This document shows, in pieces, positions 867-17,955 of a stretch of 19,472 bases of DNA (within the stretch, counting starts at the first letter, position 1; each line of letters opens with the position of its first letter). The notes under the pieces were generated by a model. The model saw nothing but the letters and a program-made list of their open reading frames with translations. It ran no database searches and had not been told where the DNA came from. The stretch lies in UHGV virus genome UHGV-0294315; one strand, written 5' to 3'. This DNA is from a virus. Both the position numbers and the translations under genes were made by a program.

Positions 867-1045
867 CTTGTTTTCCTCGCACGTTCTCTAAGCCACCGGA
901 TATCCCACAGGTGAGCTGTGTAATTGAAGGTTTTTACGTCAGATTCTTTTGGGATTGGCTTGCGTTTATTTCTGGAGCGTTTCGTTGGAAGGTAATTGCA
1001 GTTTTCGCAGATTATGTCGGTGAAACTTCGTCGCTGTCGTCTCAT
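863..1045 (-). CDS. ninE: NinE
   Basis: [60 protein letters not shown] matches lambda/DLP12 NinE. Start taken at the internal ATG (1045), which overlaps the upstream stop as ATGA. Confidence 0.8.
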
Positions 1046-1644
1046 GCCGCCCTGTCTCCCCATCGCGCTTTCATTGTTTCATTTGCAAATCGCCAGAATC
1101 TTCCTTTGTGATATGAGCTTTCGCCATTACAGCAACGACTAATTGACGAACTATCAAATCCTTCTCTGACAGCATCCATAGCTGCTTCATAATAAACCTC
1201 CTCCCCAGTTTTCATGTCAGTAGAAATAACAGCTTTACTGGCAGGATGATCACCACTAAATTTACCTAGCGATATAGGTATTCTTCCATTTTGTTTATAT
1301 CCGTGCTTTGAGTTTTCAGAATGTGATACCCATTCAAGGTTTTCAGCCCTATTGTCATCTCTTTGCCCATTTTTGTGATTAACTACCAAGCCATCACAGA
1401 ACCCTGTACAGAATGCTTTCGCAACTATCCTGTGGGCGCTGTATTTCTTACCGTATACCTTTATTTGAAGATATCCTGTCGACTTGCACTTGAATGGTTT
1501 TACGCTAGTGCCATTAATTATTTTCTTATATGGCCTCTGTCTGGTTGATGTTACTGTAATTTCCCTCGTAATAGACCTGAAATTCCCTTTATTGCTAACC
1601 TGATAAAATGGAATTCCTTCGATATCTACCCAAACCTCAATCAT
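1042..1644 (-). CDS. HNH homing-endonuclease-like protein (NUMOD4-like N-terminus plus HNH_3-type motif), C-terminal tail derived from a ninB 3' end
   Basis: N-terminus [17 protein letters not shown] (NUMOD4-like); [21 protein letters not shown]...[28 protein letters not shown] (HNH_3-like). Last residues [12 protein letters not shown] match the lambda NinB C-terminus. Strong RBS GGAGGA upstream; start overlaps ninB stop. Confidence 0.7.
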
Positions 1645-2126: not shown

Positions 2127-3503
2127 TCATACGTCAGCCCCTTGTGCATATCGTCTGCCACGCGCAGCAGGTGCATTTGATGATGTGCAAATCTGTCTGG
2201 CTTCATCCTGGTCACAGGCAACAAAGTGTCCGTTGCAGAACCGCTGGTAAACCGTACCAAGCGAGCCAAAACGGTTTTTCGTTACGATGATTTCAGCAAA
2301 TGGCGCGGCGCTACTGTTCTCGTCATATACCGCTTCCCGATAGAGCATGATGATTGAGTCTGCGTCCTGTTCAATGCTTCCTGAATCACGCAAATCTGCG
2401 TTTGTCGGGCGTTTGTTTGGTCGCTTCTCAACATCGCGCGAAAGCTGACTCAGGGAGATAACCGGTGTTTTCAGGTCTTTCGCCATCGCCTTCAGGCTTC
2501 CGGAGATGTGAGCAATTGCGAGGTCGTTGCGGTCTGCTTTCGGCTTCTCAATCAGGCCAAGATAATCCACCATGATTAGTGACAGGTTTGGATTTTCCTG
2601 TTTGTGCCGCTCTGCAATTGAGCGAATTTCTTCGACCGATAACCGCGAGGCATCGACTACCCATACATCCAAATCTGCAAGCTGACTCATGCCGTTAGCA
2701 ACACGCGCCCAGCCTTCGTCATCCATCGATGCAGGATTTCGCAGCACGCTAACCGACATCCTCCCGGCGTTGGCAATACTTCGCTCTGCAATCTGCAATG
2801 CGCTCATTTCCATTGAGAAAATCAATACCCCGCGCCGGACGTCAGAACCAGGAATAACGCGGCTTGCAACGCCTTCGGCAATCTTAAGCGCCAGTTCGGT
2901 TTTCCCCATACCAGGACGAGCAGCGATTATCACAAAGTCTTCTGCGTTCATCCCTCCGGTGATGGCATCAAGTTCTTCGATTCCGGTCTTCAGGGTATCT
3001 GACTCTTCTCCGTTCCTCAGACGCCTGTCAAGCGTGTCAGTGTAGTCAGTGATGATTTCCCCTAACCGCACCGGTTTAACCTCGTCACGGGGCTTTCTGA
3101 TGGCTGAGAGACGCTTTACAAGCTCATCCATCGCCTGACTCGATGCGTCGATGGTTCCGCTCCGAATTGGTTCACGCATTTCATCCATGATTTCCAGCAC
3201 CAGACGGCGGTGATAGTTATCCGCGACCATTCCGGCATATCCCTTCAGGTTTGCGGCACTCGGGCAGTTTTTGCTGGTCATCAGGATTGACGTGAAATGC
3301 TCCTCTCCGCACGCCTCGGCAACCATCAGCGCGTCGATTAGGTTTCTGTTTCTCGCCTGCTTGCGGATAACCTCGAAGGCTTTCCGGTAGAGCGGAATTG
3401 AAAACGCTTCCGGCTCAAGCGTTGCCAGAACGTCACTGGCAGTCGGTGTTAATCCACCAATCAGCAGGCCACCGATAACGCTCGCTTCGATATCCTGTCT
3501 CAT
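2127..3503 (-). CDS. Replicative DNA helicase, DnaB family (phage-encoded, P22 gene 12-like)
   Basis: 458 aa with DnaB N-terminal domain, Walker A ARPGMGKT, and the SLSQLSR motif. Start overlaps the O-like stop (ATGA). Confidence 0.85.
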
Positions 3504-4447
3504 GCAATCCCCCTGTCTGCAAACTTCCCTTCCCGAACTCCCGTTAACGAATCTTCCCTCAGCAGGTAATCAAAATCTGCCGTCCAGCCCGTGTCGTTGT
3601 CTCCGAAGTAAAACGGCTTGGCCTGATGCACAAACGCCCTGACATACGCTCTGAAACCGTCCACGTTTGGCGTTTTCAGTTGCGGGATGATTTTCTTCAG
3701 GCGGCGTTTGCGTTTCTCGTTGACCGCAACAGCGTGTGGCAGTCTGTCACCGACTTCGGTGTTGTAGGCGTTCAGGAAGGATTCGTAGTCGATTCGTTCT
3801 GCCTTGCGACGTTCAGGTTTAACCTGCCCATCGCCGCCCCCATTGGGGGGTAGGGGGGTATTATTTATATTCTTGTTAATACCTTCTTGTTCATGATGTG
3901 CGGTTGTTTGTGCGGCTTCATGTGCGCTTTCATGTGCGGCATGTACGCTGAAAGCCGCGCCATTACTGGCTTCATCATGTGCGGCATCATGTGCGGTTGT
4001 TTGTGCGGCTTCATGTGCGGGTGAATTGTCCATTTTTTGAGCGTATTCATGATAATTTGTGATGGTGATCACACGACCTTTTTGCTTCTCTCCATCAATG
4101 GAGATCATCCCCTCTTTCACAAAAACCTGAAGCATCCGCTCAACCTGATCACGGCTTGCTGGCTTGCCATGTCTGTCGCATAACTGAAGACCTAAATCAG
4201 CTGCTGTCACAACCAGTTGACCGGGTTGCAGATGCCATTCATGACCTTTGAAATTCGCTTTGTATGGCTTTCTGGCGGCATTCAGGAGAAGGTTTTCCCA
4301 CAGGGTGCGAAGATAAACATCTTTCGCCCATGACTGTTTCAGAATGCTCCGGTACAACGGAATGTAACCAGTTTTCTGGTTCTCCATCCTGTTGCTCCTG
4401 CGCTCGTGTGCGGCGCTGAAATCGTAGATTTTTGCTGTATTGCTCAT
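3500..4447 (-). CDS. Replication initiator, lambda O / P22 gene 18-like, with internal origin
   Basis: N-terminus [13 protein letters not shown] resembles lambda O (MTNTAKILNF...). Internal His/Ala-rich peptide repeats are encoded by the DNA iterons. Sits directly upstream of the helicase gene. Confidence 0.75.
3859..4021. repeat. Putative origin of replication: iteron array plus AT-rich segment inside the O-like gene
   Basis: About nine copies of (C/T)ATGTGCGG(C) at 9-12 bp spacing between 3893 and 4021, including a near-identical ~35-bp direct repeat (3892-3926 vs 3986-4021). Adjacent AT-rich stretch 3859-3885 and a G-run at 3845-3858. Confidence 0.6.
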
Positions 4448-4449
4448 AA

Positions 4450-4722
4450 CTACCTGCCTTGACGAAAGACCTTAAGAACATCGTTAAACTGACTTACGGA
4501 TATGTCTTCTTTGAGAAGCTTTTCCAGAAATGCGTTTGGAATGAACGTATATCCCTCCTCTTTTGGTAGAGACGGGAGCAACGCCCTCGCCTCAGCCTTC
4601 AGAAGCTCAGTTCTGGCAACTTTCACAAAAGAGATTTGAGTTCTTTCATCAATGGAACGAAGGAAGCGCAAACGCTTAGCTTCTTTGTGTGTATCAGGTG
4701 GATTAAAGCCTTTGTTTCGCAT
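4450..4722 (-). CDS. Hypothetical 90-aa protein between cII and the O-like gene
   Basis: Start chosen at the internal ATG 4722 (RBS GAGGT, 6-nt spacing); the longer track ORF would overlap cII. Charged, helical-looking sequence MRNKGFNPPDTHKEAKRLRFLRSIDERTQ.... No family recognised. Confidence 0.45.
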   Translation of the reverse strand: MRNKGFNPPDTHKEAKRLRFLRSIDERTQISFVKVARTELLKAEARALLPSLPKEEGYTFIPNAFLEKLLKEDISVSQFNDVLKVFRQGR

Positions 4723-4727
4723 ATAAT

Positions 4728-4797
4728 TACCTCGTTGGATGTTGTTAAAATTCCATTTGTATTTGATCAGAACGCTCGGTTGCCGCCGGGCGTTTTT
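4728..4797 (+). ncRNA. oop: oop-like antisense RNA with intrinsic terminator, overlapping the cII 3' end
   Basis: Plus-strand CGCTCGG-TTGCCG-CCGGGCG hairpin plus TTTTTTATT at 4769-4797 matches the lambda oop terminator as remembered. Possible -10 TATAAT at 4722-4727. The 5' end is approximate. Confidence 0.5.
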
Positions 4798-5038
4798 TAT
4801 TGGTGAGAATCGAAGCAACTTGTCGTGCCAATCGAGCCATATCGTCGTCAACGACGCCCCATTCAAGAACAGCAAGCAGCATTGAGAACTTTGGAATCCA
4901 GTCCCTCTTCCACCTGCTGATCTGCGACTTATCAACGCCCACAGCTTCCGCTGTCTTCTCAGTTCCAAGCATTGCGATTTTGTTAAGCAACGCACTCTCG
5001 ATTCTTAGAGCCTCGTTGCGTTTGTTTGCACGAACCAT
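4745..5038 (-). CDS. cII: Transcriptional activator CII
   Basis: From the internal ATG: MVRANKRNEALRIESALLNKIAMLGTEKTAEAVGVDKSQISRWKRDWIPKFSMLLAVLEWGVVDDDMARLARQVASILTNKKRPAATERSDQIQMEF, essentially lambda CII (97 aa). The track's 5' extension to 5125 is not used. Confidence 0.9.
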   Translation of the reverse strand: MVRANKRNEALRIESALLNKIAMLGTEKTAEAVGVDKSQISRWKRDWIPKFSMLLAVLEWGVVDDDMARLARQVASILTNKKRPAATERSDQIQMEF

Positions 5039-5096
5039 ATGTAAGTATTTCCTTAACAAATAAGAAGTTATGCGCACCAACTGATGCGCGTTGTAT

Positions 5097-5140
5097 TCCC
5101 GCATTTCGGCGGGAATGAGGACCATGACTGTTAAAGAGCG
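5097..5140 (-). promoter_or_regulatory. nutR-like site (boxA plus boxB hairpin) between cro and cII
   Basis: On the minus strand: CGCTCTTTAACA (boxA, rrn-like), then 14 nt, then TCCCGC-CGAAAT-GCGGGA hairpin. The same boxA/boxB pair recurs at nutL. Confidence 0.55.
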
Positions 5141-5146
5141 GTGTTA

Positions 5147-5341
5147 CTATTTGTTTTTCTTGTTGCTTGGGAAAGGACGAACTTCCTCTCCAATCACACT
5201 GCCATCAGGCTTTACCGTAACCATAATGTTACGGCCTGCCAGAATGGCCTTGCTGATAGCGCACTGGATTACACCAAAGTCACTGGCTGCTTTAGCCTGT
5301 CCATGGATTTTGGCGTAATCGGCAAGTGTCATTCGAATCAT
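5147..5341 (-). CDS. cro: Cro repressor
   Basis: [64 protein letters not shown] aligns with lambda Cro along its length. Start chosen at ATG 5341, which sits 6 nt after GGAGA; the track's GTG at 5347 abuts the RBS. Confidence 0.8.
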
Positions 5342-5371
5342 ATGCACTCTCCGTTATTAACCATGAACAAA

Positions 5372-5447: not shown

Positions 5448-6164
5448 ATGGAAAATAAAAAATCACTGACGACAGAACAGCTCGAAGACGCTAAGCGGCT
5501 TAAGGCTTTGTATGAGTCAAAAAAGAAAGAATTGGGAATAACCCAATACTCAATCGCTGATGAACTGGGTATCACCCAAGGAGCGGTAGGGCATTATCTT
5601 AATGGCAGAAACGCGCTAAACGTTGAGGTCGCATCTGGTTTTGCACGTTTGTTGCAAGTCTCAATTGCTGATTTTAGCCAGTCAATTGCTGCCAAGGTTG
5701 CAGAACAGGCAGAAAGCCTTAAGAGCGATGCCAACGTAAGGTATGCAGGGGAATACAGAGCAGGAAAGAGGTATCCGGTGTTAAGCAGTATCCAGGCTGG
5801 CTCGTGGTGTGAAGCATGCGAACCATACACCATTAAAGACATAGATGTTTGGCTTGAGTCTGACGCGCATATTCAAGGCAATGCGTTCTGGCTTAAAGTG
5901 GAAGGTGATTCAATGACGGCACCGGTTGGGTTAAGCATTCCAGAGGGAACATTCGTTCTTTTCGATACCGGAAGGGAGGCGATCAACGGCAGCCTGGTCA
6001 TAGCAAAACTTTCTGACTCTAACGAAGCAACATTCAAGAAGCTGATAATCGACGGCGGAAATAAATACCTCAAGGGACTTAACCCTGCATGGCCTCTCGT
6101 GCCAATCAATGGAAACTGCAAGATTATAGGCGTTGCAATTGAGACAAAACTAAGGCTGGTTTGA
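5448..6164 (+). CDS. cI: CI-type prophage repressor (HTH N-terminal domain plus S24 LexA-like autocleavage domain)
   Basis: N-terminus LTTEQLEDAKRLKALYESKKKELGITQ resembles lambda CI; C-terminus FWLKVEGDSMTAPVGLSIPEG...ATFKKL...NGNCKIIGV resembles lambda CI / P22 C2. No Shine-Dalgarno upstream, consistent with a leaderless PRM transcript. Confidence 0.9.
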   Translation: MENKKSLTTEQLEDAKRLKALYESKKKELGITQYSIADELGITQGAVGHYLNGRNALNVEVASGFARLLQVSIADFSQSIAAKVAEQAESLKSDANVRYAGEYRAGKRYPVLSSIQAGSWCEACEPYTIKDIDVWLESDAHIQGNAFWLKVEGDSMTAPVGLSIPEGTFVLFDTGREAINGSLVIAKLSDSNEATFKKLIIDGGNKYLKGLNPAWPLVPINGNCKIIGVAIETKLRLV

Positions 6165-12424: not shown

Positions 12425-13070
12425 CTATCAGACGCTGCGTGAGATAGCAAAACAGGCAACACAGGGTGAATGGGTCGCATTTATTTCGTCTGGTACTGGT
12501 ACATATGCGGTGCATACACCTGGTGATAAACGATGTGAAGACGTTATCAAATGGACCGGCTTTGATGGACAGAACAACGCAGAGAACAACGCTCGTTATA
12601 TCGCAGCTTTCAACCCTGAAGTAGTGCAGGCACTGCTGGATGAACGGGAAAGAAACCAGCAATACATCAAACGCCGCGACCAGGAGAACGAGGATATTGC
12701 GCTAACGGTAGGGAAACTGCGTGTTGAGCTGGAAGCCGCAGAGAAGCGCAACGCAAAATTACAAAGCGAGAATGCATACATCCGCAACCGGTTCAAAGAA
12801 CTGGACCTGTTAATCGGGAAAAACATTCTGGTCATGCAGGCTGCCATTATCGAATGGCAGGCAACTGGCGACGCTAAGAGCGGACTGGCATGGATTTATA
12901 ACACACTGTTTGGCCCTGGCGAATTACCGGACAAATCTGAGAAAGATGCTCAGGCCTACTTTAATCGCAAATATGCACCGATTGACGAAAAGCTTATGGC
13001 GCTTCACAAGTGGTTTTGGGAACAAAGTGAAGCCGAGCGCTCCGCTGGCATTCGCATCAAAGGAGAGTGA
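12411..13070 (+). CDS. Ead/Ea22-like phage protein (219 aa)
   Basis: GTG start 7 nt after AAGGAGG; N-terminus MSKIDYQTLREIAKQATQGEWV resembles the conserved start of enterobacterial ead/Ea22-like proteins (from memory). Confidence 0.5.
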   Translation: MSKIDYQTLREIAKQATQGEWVAFISSGTGTYAVHTPGDKRCEDVIKWTGFDGQNNAENNARYIAAFNPEVVQALLDERERNQQYIKRRDQENEDIALTVGKLRVELEAAEKRNAKLQSENAYIRNRFKELDLLIGKNILVMQAAIIEWQATGDAKSGLAWIYNTLFGPGELPDKSEKDAQAYFNRKYAPIDEKLMALHKWFWEQSEAERSAGIRIKGE

Positions 13071-13071
13071 A

Positions 13072-13437
13072 ATGGCACTGACGAAAAAACAACGTGCAGA
13101 ATTGCGCATGAAGTTTGGCGGTCGCTGTGCTTATTGCGGCTGTGAACTTGGCGAAAAGTGGCATGCAGACCATGTAAAACCGGTCATTCGTTTTGATGGA
13201 AATATGCTTCACCAGGAACGTGACGATATATCCAACATGGTTCCGGCATGCCACCCATGCAATCTGCACAAGCATTGCAGTAGCCTGGAAGATTATCGGC
13301 GAATTATCAGTGATGGTCGTCGTGAATTCCTTGCATCCGGGAAAGGCAAAGCGCTGGTTCGTATGGGATTGGTTGAAATGAAATCTGACCCGGTTGTGTT
13401 CTGGTTTGAAAAATATCAAGAAGGGGCTACGGTATGA
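13072..13437 (+). CDS. HNH endonuclease (121 aa)
   Basis: Start at the internal ATG (RBS AGGAGA); HNH signature CAYCGCEL...WHADHVKP...NMVPACHPCNLHK. Confidence 0.7.
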   Translation: MALTKKQRAELRMKFGGRCAYCGCELGEKWHADHVKPVIRFDGNMLHQERDDISNMVPACHPCNLHKHCSSLEDYRRIISDGRREFLASGKGKALVRMGLVEMKSDPVVFWFEKYQEGATV

Positions 13438-14818: not shown

Positions 14819-15090
14819 AATAGCGGGTAAAATATTTTTCACATCTAAAAAACACCATTCCAATCAATCCCCTGCCGCGCCAAGTAGATGTCTGCAGGGG
14901 ACACTTTAAAGACCTTTCTCTACATTTCACTTCATTACATAACCACTTAAAAAAACAGTAAGTTATCACCGAATCGGCCTGATTTTCATTTCAGTTAATT
15001 TCATGACATTACAACCTCGTGATGGTATAAGTGATGGTATTCCCCAGTTCGATATGCAGATACCATCAATCTACCAAAATGAGTACAGAT

Positions 15091-16365
15091 ATGGCCATTA
15101 ATGTGCTTTCCCCCAAACAGATAGAAAACGCCAAGCCGAAGACCAATGATTACAAACTTACCGATGGAGGGAGTTTGTATCTACTGGTACGAAAGACTGG
15201 TGGAAAATACTGGCGTATGAATTATCGTTTTGATGGAAAACAAGTGACATTGGCATTAGGGGTCTACCCAGATGTCTCACTTGCAACAGCGCGGAAACGG
15301 CGTGATGAAGCCAGGCAACTACTAGCCGATGGTCGTGATCCTCGCGAAGCAAAGAAACCCAAAAAGGAAGACCCAATTTCCCCCACGTTCGAGAGTGTTG
15401 CCAGAGAGTGGCATAGTAGAACGATAGGGCATCCTGAGTGGAAAGAGATCACCCGTAAAAAAATTCTCCGAGAAATGGAAAACCACCTCTTTCCTGCCAT
15501 CGGTTCAAAGCCTATCGATACGCTCAAAACCCGTGACTTGATGCCGATGCTGGTTGAGATGACTGAGAAAGGAATTGGTGCCACAACGAGCCGGGTAAAA
15601 ACCACTATGACGAGCATCTTCCGTTATGCCGTGCAACGTGGAATTGTCGATTACAACCCTGCCCACGATCTAAAAGGTGCAATTACGACCCCCAAAGTAC
15701 GACATCGCCCCGCACTACCTCTCGAACGTTTACCTGAACTGTTAGCGAAAACGAGAAGTTACACGGGAAGACCATTGACTCGCCTAGCAGTTCTATTTTC
15801 CCTGCACACTTTTGTGCGATCCAGCGAACTACGACATGCCAGATGGGAGGAGATCGACATTGAAAATGGGCTATGGACGATACCAGGACAACGTGAAGAG
15901 ATCGCAGGGGTTAAATTCTCAGAGCGGGGTGCAAAGATGGGGGCTGCTCATTATGTCCCGCTATCTAGTCAGGCTATCGGGGTACTGGAGGATATAAGGA
16001 AAATCAGTGGTGAATATCTGCTGGTTTTCCCCGGTGACAGCAACCCATATAAACCGATGAGCGAAAACACAGTTAATAAAGCACTGCGAACGATGGGTTA
16101 CGACACTCAAAGTGATGTTTGCTTGCATGGGTTCAGGGCGATGGCCTGCTCTGCACTGACCGAATCAGGACTCTGGTCACGCGATGCAGTTGAACGGCAG
16201 ATGAGTCACCAAGAAAGAAACGAAGTGCGGGCAGCATATGTGCATCTTGCGCAGCACATGCAGGAACGCCGCAGAATGATGCAATGGTGGTCTAATTATC
16301 TGGAACTAAATAAGGACGAATTTCATGCTCCTTATGACTTATCAGGTATTAACATTATCAATTAA
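15091..16365 (+). CDS. int: Tyrosine integrase, P4-type (DUF4102 arm-binding N-terminus plus phage integrase catalytic domain)
   Basis: MAINVLSPKQIENAKPKTNDYKLTDGGSLYLLVRKTGGKYWRMNYRFDGKQVTLALGVYPDVSLATARKRRDEARQLLADGRDP is a typical P4-family integrase N-terminus. Start could also be ATG 15079 or the track's GTG 15031. Confidence 0.85.
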   Translation: MAINVLSPKQIENAKPKTNDYKLTDGGSLYLLVRKTGGKYWRMNYRFDGKQVTLALGVYPDVSLATARKRRDEARQLLADGRDPREAKKPKKEDPISPTFESVAREWHSRTIGHPEWKEITRKKILREMENHLFPAIGSKPIDTLKTRDLMPMLVEMTEKGIGATTSRVKTTMTSIFRYAVQRGIVDYNPAHDLKGAITTPKVRHRPALPLERLPELLAKTRSYTGRPLTRLAVLFSLHTFVRSSELRHARWEEIDIENGLWTIPGQREEIAGVKFSERGAKMGAAHYVPLSSQAIGVLEDIRKISGEYLLVFPGDSNPYKPMSENTVNKALRTMGYDTQSDVCLHGFRAMACSALTESGLWSRDAVERQMSHQERNEVRAAYVHLAQHMQERRRMMQWWSNYLELNKDEFHAPYDLSGINIIN

Positions 16366-16395
16366 ATTTTCTTATAATTTAAAACAGAGGTCATA

Positions 16396-17277
16396 ATGCA
16401 GCATTCAAAAGAGAATGAAACTATATTCTTAGGAAATCTATGGATTGACAAAAAAATACCACCATTAGAATATTGTTCATTTGAACGCGCTTCAAGACTA
16501 TTAGAATGCGAGATTGATGATTTATTACACCTATACGAAATAGGCGCTTTTAATATCGCATTCAAGGCGGATGGACTTGCAGTTAGATTTAATGTTAATT
16601 TCCTCTATAAAAATCAGAAAATGGAAATTGACTTAATTCATCCCGTATTAACTAATCAATCACTAGAGATGGAATTTTCAACAATATGGTATGACCTTAA
16701 AGATGACTCCTTTGAACATTTTGAAAATGGGCTTCAAATTATAGGATTTGCCTGTGGTATTTGGTACGCCGATGATATGATAAGTGACATAAAAAATGGA
16801 TTAGCTATAGATCCAGATTATGAATTCAGGCTTAAACCGGTAAAAATACGAGATAATGTTTTGATGGCAACGGCCTCATATGAAGGAAATAAGGTCATTG
16901 ATATTCCATTTGAAGATCTTCTTATCATGCGAAGAGATTTAGAGTTAATATGGAAATCAGTAAAAACTGGAATTCCTATGCCAAGTTTACTTACGAAAAG
17001 AATTTCATCTGAACCTAAAATCCCCAAGCGATTAAATAACACTGCTGAGCATCATGCAAAAAATAGGGGGGGGTTATTAAATGCAGCCATATATATATTA
17101 GCAAAATACCCAAGCGAATGTCGTGGTGAAAGAAAAGAGATAAGTCCTGAAAAGTGGACTAACGCCATAATTAAACATTTAGGAGAGCTACCTCCAATAT
17201 TTATCACTAATGAACAAGAAATCTTAAGAAAATTACGATTAGCGGTTAATCATGCGGGATTAAAACAAAAGGGGTAG
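16396..17277 (+). CDS. Hypothetical 293-aa protein, AT-rich standalone gene between int and alpA
   Basis: Own consensus -10 TATAAT (16373-16378) and RBS AGAGG; long intact ORF in strongly AT-rich DNA. No domain recognised. Confidence 0.6.
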   Translation: MQHSKENETIFLGNLWIDKKIPPLEYCSFERASRLLECEIDDLLHLYEIGAFNIAFKADGLAVRFNVNFLYKNQKMEIDLIHPVLTNQSLEMEFSTIWYDLKDDSFEHFENGLQIIGFACGIWYADDMISDIKNGLAIDPDYEFRLKPVKIRDNVLMATASYEGNKVIDIPFEDLLIMRRDLELIWKSVKTGIPMPSLLTKRISSEPKIPKRLNNTAEHHAKNRGGLLNAAIYILAKYPSECRGERKEISPEKWTNAIIKHLGELPPIFITNEQEILRKLRLAVNHAGLKQKG

Positions 17278-17379: not shown

Positions 17380-17595
17380 ATGACATTAAAAACTTATCCT
17401 ATCACTGGACATGCCCGCCCACGAGCTACTGCTGACTTTTTGCAAATAAGTACGGTTACTCTCTGGCGCTGGGAAAAGAACAATCCTGAATTTCCCAAAT
17501 CTATACGCATTTCAAAACGGGTATCTGTTTACGATGCACAAGAAATTAGGCAGTGGGTTAAAGCTCAATCAGCAGGATTGGAGGAAGTAGTGTAA
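17380..17595 (+). CDS. alpA: AlpA / HTH_17-family transcriptional regulator (P4 Vis-like)
   Basis: 71 aa, ATADFLQISTVTLWRWEKNNPEFPKSIRISKRVSVYDAQEIRQWVK matches the AlpA/excisionase HTH pattern. Confidence 0.65.
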   Translation: MTLKTYPITGHARPRATADFLQISTVTLWRWEKNNPEFPKSIRISKRVSVYDAQEIRQWVKAQSAGLEEVV

Positions 17596-17644
17596 TGACA
17601 ATATTAACAAAGCTGGGGAGAAAAAAGCCTCCCCAACGTATTAA

Positions 17645-17839
17645 TCAATTCTTTGGTTCTAAACCTCGGCTTTGTAACTCTTTGCGTAGAATGCGCTTGA
17701 TCCAAGCCGCTAGCGATTCATCGCCATCCTGCTGTTGTGCTTGTTCCATCAGTTCACGCAGTTCAGGGTCAAGTCGGAACTGGAATGGCGGATTCCCACG
17801 TCTTTCATTTTTGTGTGTTGACACGTCAATTACACCCAT
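17645..17839 (-). CDS. Ribbon-helix-helix (Arc/CopG/MetJ-like) DNA-binding protein
   Basis: 64 aa; NPPFQFRLDPELRELMEQ resembles an RHH beta-strand/helix-A signature. Its promoter region carries repeated TGTAATG half-sites. Confidence 0.5.
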   Translation of the reverse strand: MGVIDVSTHKNERRGNPPFQFRLDPELRELMEQAQQQDGDESLAAWIKRILRKELQSRGLEPKN

Positions 17840-17873
17840 TGTAATGTATTTATGTGTAATGACACATTACACA
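17826..17873. promoter_or_regulatory. Operator-like array of TGTAATG / CATTACA half-sites at the RHH gene start
   Basis: Perfect palindrome GTGTAATG-ACA-CATTACAC (17854-17872) plus further copies TTGTAATG (17839-17846) and AATTACAC (17829-17836). Confidence 0.45.
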
Positions 17874-17955
17874 CAGAAAAACAAAATAGCAACGCCCCGG
17901 AGTGTTTGCAGCACCACCGAGGCGTCTGACCAGCACGTTATATGAGGTAACGAAG

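Follow-up and report, generated by a model that had tools for sequence, protein, structure and literature searches.

A candidate replication origin within an O-like initiator gene

The virus genome UHGV-0294315 was analysed as a stretch of 19,472 nucleotides (hereafter, the window), which represents the early region of a P22/CUS-3-type lambdoid prophage. We examined a repeat array and its adjoining elements (3837-4021) that lie inside the gene of an O-like replication initiator and that we interpret below as the probable replication origin of the phage. The gene (3500..4447, minus strand, 315 amino acids (aa)) was identified by its open reading frame (ORF), Pfam and homology, and its product consists of a putative origin-binding domain at the N-terminus, a linker encoded by the repeats and, at the C-terminus, a domain of the P22 gp18/HK97 type. 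Residues 20-132 match Pfam PF04492 (Phage_rep_O) with 56.8 bits against a cut-off of 28.7; since lambda O, P22 gp18 and HK97 O score 114-130 bits, the window initiator is a divergent member of this family. The C-terminal 126 aa are 58% identical to P22 gp18. The end of the gene is overlapped by a gene for a DnaB-family replicative helicase of the P22 gene 12 type (2127..3503, minus strand), identified by Pfam (DnaB_C, 2.4e-78; DnaB N-terminal domain, 4.2e-13), with matches to the NCBIfam DnaB and phage_DnaB models below their equivalog cut-offs. The same order, initiator followed by helicase, is found in P22 (18 then 12) and HK97 (O then P), and the DnaB-like helicase is the presumed partner of the initiator C-terminal domain.

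The O-like gene is 98-99% identical to genes named "replication protein O" in CUS-3, JEP4, Gally, HF4s and TL-2011a, as well as in about 50 Stx2a-converting phages with the same annotation. The N-terminal half of the initiator together with the repeats is present in 286 of 5,426 complete E. coli genomes. In the records that we inspected, the gene is labelled only as replication protein (O), without an origin feature. Database entries that match the N-terminal domain are for the most part labelled partial, with lengths of 100-240 aa; it may be that assemblies are often interrupted at the iteron array.

On the minus (coding) strand, positions 3894-4021 contain eight in-register CCGCACA(T/A) units, one of which reads GCGCACA (3921-3927), arranged in two blocks of four at an exact 12-bp spacing, with cores starting at 428, 440, 452 and 464 and at 509, 521, 533 and 545 in gene coordinates. 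Block 1, which is promoter-proximal (3975..4021, minus strand), has the cores CCGCACAT, CCGCACAA, CCGCACAT and CCGCACAT at 4014-4020, 4002-4008, 3990-3996 and 3978-3984, and block 2, which adjoins the AT-rich stretch (3894..3940, minus strand), has CCGCACAT, GCGCACAT, CCGCACAA and CCGCACAT at 3933-3939, 3921-3927, 3909-3915 and 3897-3903. The spacer between the blocks (3941..3974, minus strand) holds a conserved stretch, GAAGCCAGTAATGGCGCGGCT, and a degenerate, out-of-register ninth copy, GCGTACA (3942-3948). The arrangement is far from random: seven exact copies of CCGCACA lie on the minus strand within the 124 bp of 3897-4020, and the whole window contains nine on both strands against 2.5 expected, a number reached by none of 200 shuffles. 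Matches outside the array are isolated single copies, the window not having been scanned systematically for another origin-like region. No dyad symmetry was found within the 12-bp units. The repeats encode aa 142-185, between the Phage_rep_O domain (aa 20-132) and the gp18-like C-terminus (from ~ 185).

In the direction of transcription, a 35-bp AT-rich stretch (3859..3893, minus strand), the presumed DNA-unwinding element, comes directly after the array. Its G+C content of 20%, compared to an average of 46% for the window, is the joint lowest of the early-right operon, and hardly any variation among relatives is seen in its first ~ 30 bp (CATGAACAAGAAGGTATTAACAAGAATATAAA). Beyond it lies a G+C-rich element (3837..3858) with a CCCCCA/TGGGGG hairpin, whose arms occupy 3837-3842 and 3844-3849, and a G-run, GGGGGGTAGGGGGG, at 3845-3858. 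A CCCCC-loop-GGGGG sequence also follows the AT-rich stretch in P22, where it lies inside the annotated rep_origin, in HK97 and in locus L044. In lambda and its lambda-type relatives the corresponding place is taken by a different element, TTCGTCAGAGAATTCTGGCGAA, which by our own reading is roughly symmetric about the EcoRI site.

These results bear on an original prediction, made from the sequence alone, of an iteron-type origin at this site. Its count of about nine repeat copies is accounted for by the eight in-register units and the single degenerate one, and its two near-identical blocks of ~ 35 bp correspond to 3892-3926 and 3985-4019, which differ by one base. The AT-rich stretch that it placed after the repeats was likewise recovered, at the coordinates and composition given above, and the array is indeed read in frame as a His/Ala-rich peptide of (A/P)AH(E/D) repeats. 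The motif and periodicity analysis that it proposed gave, in addition to the excess of copies, a period of 12 for both blocks by Tandem Repeats Finder. The roughly helical spacing that it described had to be corrected, as the spacing is exactly 12 bp and not ~ 10.5 bp, and the two blocks are separated by a 45-bp step. It also pointed to an inverted repeat and a G-run; both are present, the former as GGTATTA (3857-3863) and TAATACC (3877-3883), but the inverted repeat is not conserved in relatives and straddles a mosaic junction (see below), and is thus probably incidental.

Two further sequences were considered as iterons and rejected. A core-like copy, CCGCACACGA, occurs at 4404-4413 on the minus strand, 35 nt into the O-like gene, and is kept in near-identical coliphages; the Klebsiella and Yersinia relatives lack it, and a single additional copy is within chance expectation. 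The sequence GGCGCGG in the spacer resembles the reverse complement of a second, G-type core described below, yet it is the same in both iteron classes.

Conservation of the array at the DNA level

To compare the array among relatives we gathered 53 prophage loci, together with one phage each of Klebsiella and Yersinia, with N-terminal domains 61-87% identical to that of the window; 42 of these relatives were fully analysable. The layout proved to be fixed. All 42 carry 12-bp units in a 3+3 or a 4+4 arrangement; the last unit abuts the AT-rich stretch, and in all of them the last core of block 1 is 45 bp from the first core of block 2. Counted from the start of the AT-rich stretch, the cores in all 42 lie at -8, -20, -32 (-44), then (-77), -89, -101 (-113, -125). 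In the window the offsets are -44, -32, -20 and -8 for block 2, which are kept in relatives, and -125, -113, -101 and -89 for block 1, identical in all 4+4 relatives. The 33-bp spacer is of fixed length in the 42 relatives and partly conserved in sequence, with no variation according to iteron class; it could be a site for a further factor or reflect a geometric requirement. Nearly every array has blocks of equal size, and no clear 3+4 or 4+3 arrangement was seen (L005-L049, L053, at about 2900-3060 in each), which suggests that the gain or loss of units is coordinated between the blocks.

Our analysis revealed two classes of core. CCGCACA is found in 16 loci, the window included, and CCGCGCA, at times CCGAGCA, in 26. 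Both classes comprise 3+3 and 4+4 arrays (A class, 12 and 4 loci, respectively; G class, 9 and 17), and they never mix within a genome, with at most one unit of the other class per array. The A/G alternative occupies a fourfold-degenerate site, the third base of an Ala codon: 103 of the 104 units in the CCGCACA class have A there, and 187 of the 190 in the other class have G, while among Ala codons elsewhere in the same genes GCA accounts for 28% and GCG for 17%. The codon before this one ends in C in 293 of 294 units, even though the residue that it encodes can be P, A, G, T or S, and at these codons the first position is less conserved than the third. A similar constraint extends into the AT-rich stretch, where third-position conservation over the first ten codons is 0.87, compared to a mean of 0.63 in the N-terminal domain; in the run CAT GAA CAA GAA every third codon position, and all but one of the first positions, are identical in 42 of 42 loci. 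Because these silent positions are almost invariant, a pattern that a peptide-only repeat cannot give, the repeats and the AT-rich stretch are selected as DNA and not only as peptide.

Coupling of the iterons to the DNA-binding domain

The N-terminal DNA-binding domain (aa 20-132; 4052..4390, minus strand), delimited by Pfam and AlphaFold2, is predicted to include a winged helix-turn-helix. A single-sequence AlphaFold2 model was unusable, with a predicted local distance difference test (pLDDT) value of 46, and was replaced by a model built from a 24-sequence alignment, for which the mean pLDDT was 74.7, with 80-92 over the core. The latter shows a helix at 44-58, three strands (63-80), helices at 82-88 and 99-111, and a beta hairpin at 115-129; the helix at aa 99-111 (4115-4153, minus strand) is the predicted recognition helix. 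The top PDB matches retrieved by Foldseek were all winged-helix regulators (CRP, MarR, CodY, ArsR and Fur), at weak values (E >= 6e-3), and sequence and profile searches of the PDB found no relative (best match, E 0.16; a Fur winged helix, E 0.57). Based on the model, a winged-helix fold is likely for this domain.

When the N-terminal domains were compared between the two iteron classes, only two alignment columns split exactly by class, namely A82 versus S/T and D100 versus H. In the model, predicted helix 2 begins with A82, and D100 occupies the second place in the putative recognition helix. One pair of relatives with different iteron classes, the Yersinia phage vB_YenM_210.17 and the Y. 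vastinensis prophage L016, appears as a cassette swap: their identity is 97-100% in the first 180 nt analysed and again mostly 87-100% once the AT-rich stretch begins, but only 63-93% across the segment of the helix-turn-helix and the iterons. No further clean swap was found among the 42 loci. The sequence comparisons thus support the view that repeats and DNA-binding domain make up a single unit of specificity and are exchanged jointly.

Mosaic junctions point the same way. HK97, HK544, ST104, Stx2 phage 1717 and others match the window only over 3500-3874, that is, the C-terminal domain and the hairpin, at 95-97% identity. The Klebsiella and Yersinia phages match only from 3864 through 4400 or 4439, at 75-80%; the segment they share comprises the N-terminal domain, the iterons and most of the AT-rich stretch. 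As these opposite partial matches meet at 3864..3874, the junctions between the specificity module and the helicase-recruitment module lie inside the AT-rich stretch, which travels with the iterons in relatives, and the G-run with its hairpin belongs to the C-terminal module common to P22 and HK97 and not to the specificity module. In about 45 relatives the same N-terminal domain and iterons are joined to a lambda O-type C-terminus followed by a P-like loader gene, while the P22 gp18/HK97-type C-terminus with a DnaB-family helicase was found only in the group of the window and in locus L012. Such a two-module initiator is the classical lambdoid design.

Comparison with known origins

The comparison with lambda O and P22 gene 18, which the original prediction had called for, gave agreement in the position within the linker and in the order of repeats and AT-rich stretch, and disagreement in the repeat geometry. 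In lambda, the origin likewise lies in the linker-coding part of an initiator with a Phage_rep_O N-terminal domain, and the record annotates four iterons inside O. The repeats are again followed, along the direction of transcription, by an AT-rich stretch and then by an inverted repeat, and specificity is assigned to the N-terminal domain with the iterons, helicase recruitment to the C-terminal domain. The lambda iterons are, however, four dyad-symmetric sites of ~ 18-20 bp spaced 20, 24 and 23 bp apart, in contrast to the eight 12-bp direct repeats in two blocks of the window; lambda O is barely alignable with the window initiator (32% identity over 69 aa, E 0.004), and lambda uses P with the host DnaB where the window encodes a phage DnaB-like helicase.

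P22 and HK97 share more with the window at the C-terminal side. The P22 record (NC_002371) annotates a rep_origin inside gene 18, the gp18-type C-terminal domain is common to both, and HK97, HK544 and ST104 have the same type of C-terminal domain at 95-97% DNA identity. P22 and HK97 also share the CCCCC-loop-GGGGG sequence after the AT-rich stretch and the type of DnaB-like helicase encoded downstream. Their N-terminal domains and iterons, by contrast, are unrelated in sequence to those of the window, which agrees with the expectation that its iteron sequence differs from that of lambda and extends it to P22 and HK97. Each of these three phages has four dyad-symmetric repeats of about 16-22 bp, a geometry that the window does not share. 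Lambda, P22 and HK97 have iteron sequences unrelated to one another and an identical start-to-start spacing of 20, 24 and 23 bp (L058 535-621; L060 537-625; L004 1901-1983).

The closest precedent in layout is provided by HK022, HK620 and VT2-Sakai (Sp5), whose O gene contains short direct repeats in two blocks and, immediately after them, an AT-rich stretch; a DnaB-like helicase gene comes next. In Sp5 and HK620 the units are of 11 bp, TTACCAGCA, at start-to-start spacings of 11, 11, 44 and 11, compared to a period of 12 and a step of 45 in the window, and in the HK620 record exactly these two TTACCAGCA blocks are annotated as a two-piece rep_origin, followed by the AT-rich stretch. The window has this type of geometry, with a period of 11-12 bp, a step of ~ 44-45 bp and an AT-rich stretch after the second block. 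The Sakai Sp5 initiator is a full-length homolog of that of the window (26% identity, E 3e-10). The differences lie in the repeat sequence and in the 11-bp period of these phages, hence the lack of a peptide repeat; in addition, the Sp5 O protein falls below the Pfam Phage_rep_O threshold.

In iteron plasmids such as pSC101, R6K, RK2, P1 and F, a winged-helix initiator acts on direct repeats beside an AT-rich unwinding element. The plasmid iterons are ~ 17-22 bp long, roughly two helical turns, and lie outside the rep gene, usually with DnaA boxes, whereas the window units are of 12 bp and lie inside the gene, and no DnaA-box-like sequence was seen in 3830-4030 by eye, no formal scan having been made. 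Among P22-like phages, gene 18 of phage L contains six imprecise 11-bp repeats that were proposed as an origin by comparison alone (bioRxiv 10.1101/2020.10.05.325894). These are likewise short direct repeats inside an O-like gene, with a different repeat, TGTCCAACGGA, compared here by its published description.

We also considered whether the window carries the 'Eru3' module of Shiga-toxin phages (PMC8044961), and rejected this assignment given that the initiator of Sakai Sp5 shares only 26% identity with that of the window and that its repeats are different. In a 2021 paper on the replication modules of Shiga-toxin phages, the 'Eru3A' replication protein is described as unrelated to O. The Sakai Sp5 'Eru3A' protein (L061 1597-2496) is a homolog of the Phage_rep_O member of the window and has its own iteron array; judged by this sequence relationship, the label 'lacking O' for Eru3A may overstate the difference.

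Proposed origin and alternative explanations

Taken together, positions 3837-4021 very probably constitute a functional replication origin, located in the linker-coding part of its own initiator gene and bound by the N-terminal domain of that initiator. We base this interpretation on the Phage_rep_O membership, the position in the linker, the non-random repeats and their fixed geometry, the selection at the DNA level, the coupling to the DNA-binding domain, the modularity and the HK620 precedent. The central claim of the original prediction, a phage origin inside the O-like initiator gene, is accordingly borne out as far as family membership, linker position, DNA-level constraint and joint inheritance can support it.

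In the proposed mechanism, the N-terminal winged-helix domain would bind the eight 12-bp direct repeats (core CCGCACA) in their two blocks of four, and the resulting nucleoprotein complex would destabilise the adjoining 35-bp AT-rich stretch. The P22 gp18/HK97-type C-terminal domain would then recruit the phage's own DnaB-like helicase, encoded immediately downstream, and a lambda P-type loader acting on the host DnaB would not be used. Transcription from the early-right promoter would cross the origin site, as in lambda. We infer these steps, from initiator binding and unwinding to helicase recruitment and the start of replication at this site, from sequence comparison.

Several points weigh against this interpretation. 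No binding, footprint, mini-replicon or initiation-mapping experiment on this allele was found in the searchable literature. The repeats have neither dyad symmetry nor the spacing of 20, 24 and 23 bp of lambda, P22 and HK97, and because of this mismatch in geometry the lambda O-some model cannot be carried over as it stands. Confidence in the structural model is moderate, and its matches in the PDB are weak. The co-variation between residues and bases derives from few independent events, as it comprises one clean swap and one overall split.

Among the alternatives, the one that survives best, though we regard it as improbable, is that the initiator-bound array mainly serves as a control element, for autoregulation, titration, initiator pairing or the exclusion of related phages, and that replication starts elsewhere. 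Iteron arrays of plasmids also take part in copy control. Lambda iterons, when cloned, inhibit the replication of lambda in trans (PMC3349717), and the additional core-like copy at 4404-4413, near the 5' end of the gene, might be taken to suggest a regulatory site. That copy, however, is missing from the Klebsiella and Yersinia relatives, and CCGCACA outside the array is confined to isolated single copies (with the limit on scanning stated above). The array itself abuts a strongly conserved AT-rich stretch that travels with the iterons, with a G+C-rich hairpin beyond, which is the full anatomy of the lambda, P22 and HK620 origins.

Slightly less probable still is that the repeats are the target of some other protein of the host or the phage, instead of the O-like N-terminal domain. 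The conserved spacer between the blocks does hint at an additional factor. Yet the repeat variant tracks the helix-turn-helix of the initiator itself and is exchanged with it, and the array and the N-terminal domain occur together in Escherichia, Xenorhabdus, Yersinia, Pantoea and Morganella with differing C-terminal and partner modules; nor was a DnaA-box-like sequence apparent by eye (no formal scan). The remaining explanation, that the repeats matter in the protein alone, as a flexible His/Ala-rich linker that arose by slippage of a 12-bp, four-codon unit and does nothing as DNA, would suit the in-frame (A/P)AH(E/D) array with its period divisible by three and the frequent tolerance of low-complexity repeats in linkers, but it is scarcely credible and largely refuted by the sequence comparisons, since the silent positions are the most conserved (103/104, 187/190 and 293/294), the first codon position is less conserved than the third, the reverse of selection at the protein level, and both core variants encode Ala and nevertheless stay unmixed in each genome and track helix-turn-helix residues.

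Within the origin interpretation, a more specific arrangement can be proposed only tentatively, and we consider it possible rather than probable. In it, each 12-bp repeat would bind one initiator monomer, head to tail; two equal arrays (3+3 or 4+4) would flank the 33-bp spacer, which may bind a further factor; and specificity would follow a simple code, with Asp100 or His100, where the recognition helix starts, pairing with A or G at position 5 of the core. The assembly would thus be unlike that of lambda. If true, it would provide a compact natural system for the joint change of initiator and origin specificity.

The kind of element described here is textbook knowledge, and its layout is already annotated in the homologous phage HK620. 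No description of the CCGCACA repeat, of its 12-bp 4+4 arrangement or of the G-type sister class was found in the searchable literature. The main gain is the annotation of a module that is common in E. coli genomes, CUS-3, other coliphages and Stx2a-converting phages. Knowledge of the origin and its specificity class can help to predict the replication compatibility of co-resident prophages, and aids the design of mini-replicons and the reading of the grouping of Shiga-toxin phages by replication module. The array also offers a small, clean example of co-change between initiator and origin, in which a silent A/G in the core tracks Asp/His in the predicted recognition helix within one cassette.

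Neighboring genes and additional observations

On the minus strand, the genes listed in the order of transcription are a Cro-like repressor gene (5147-5347), cII (4745-5125), an ORF of 90 aa (4450-4722), the O-like initiator gene, the helicase gene and ninB (1637-2071). The plus strand carries cI (5448-6164), genes for an N-like antiterminator, Erf, SSB and Abc2, and the integrase gene (15031-16365).

The 90-aa ORF matches PHROG 2519, a family of unknown function (E 1.4e-56), and its end overlaps the start of the O-like gene via ATGA. It occupies the same position as P22 orf48 and HK97 gp53, and the corresponding stretch of the CUS-3 record carries no annotation.

The prophage contains two HNH endonuclease genes. 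The first (1042-1644, minus strand) encodes NUMOD4 and HNH_3 domains and adjoins ninB, and the second (12910-13437, plus strand) lies in the early-left region; both are possibly mobile insertions of the homing type.

The most AT-rich stretch of the window follows the integrase gene, at about 16347-16621, and reaches 8.6% G+C over 35 bp (16347-16381). It is probably the prophage end and attachment site. Two ORFs just past it, 16396-17277 and 17595-17945, were compared with PHROG, and neither gave a match.

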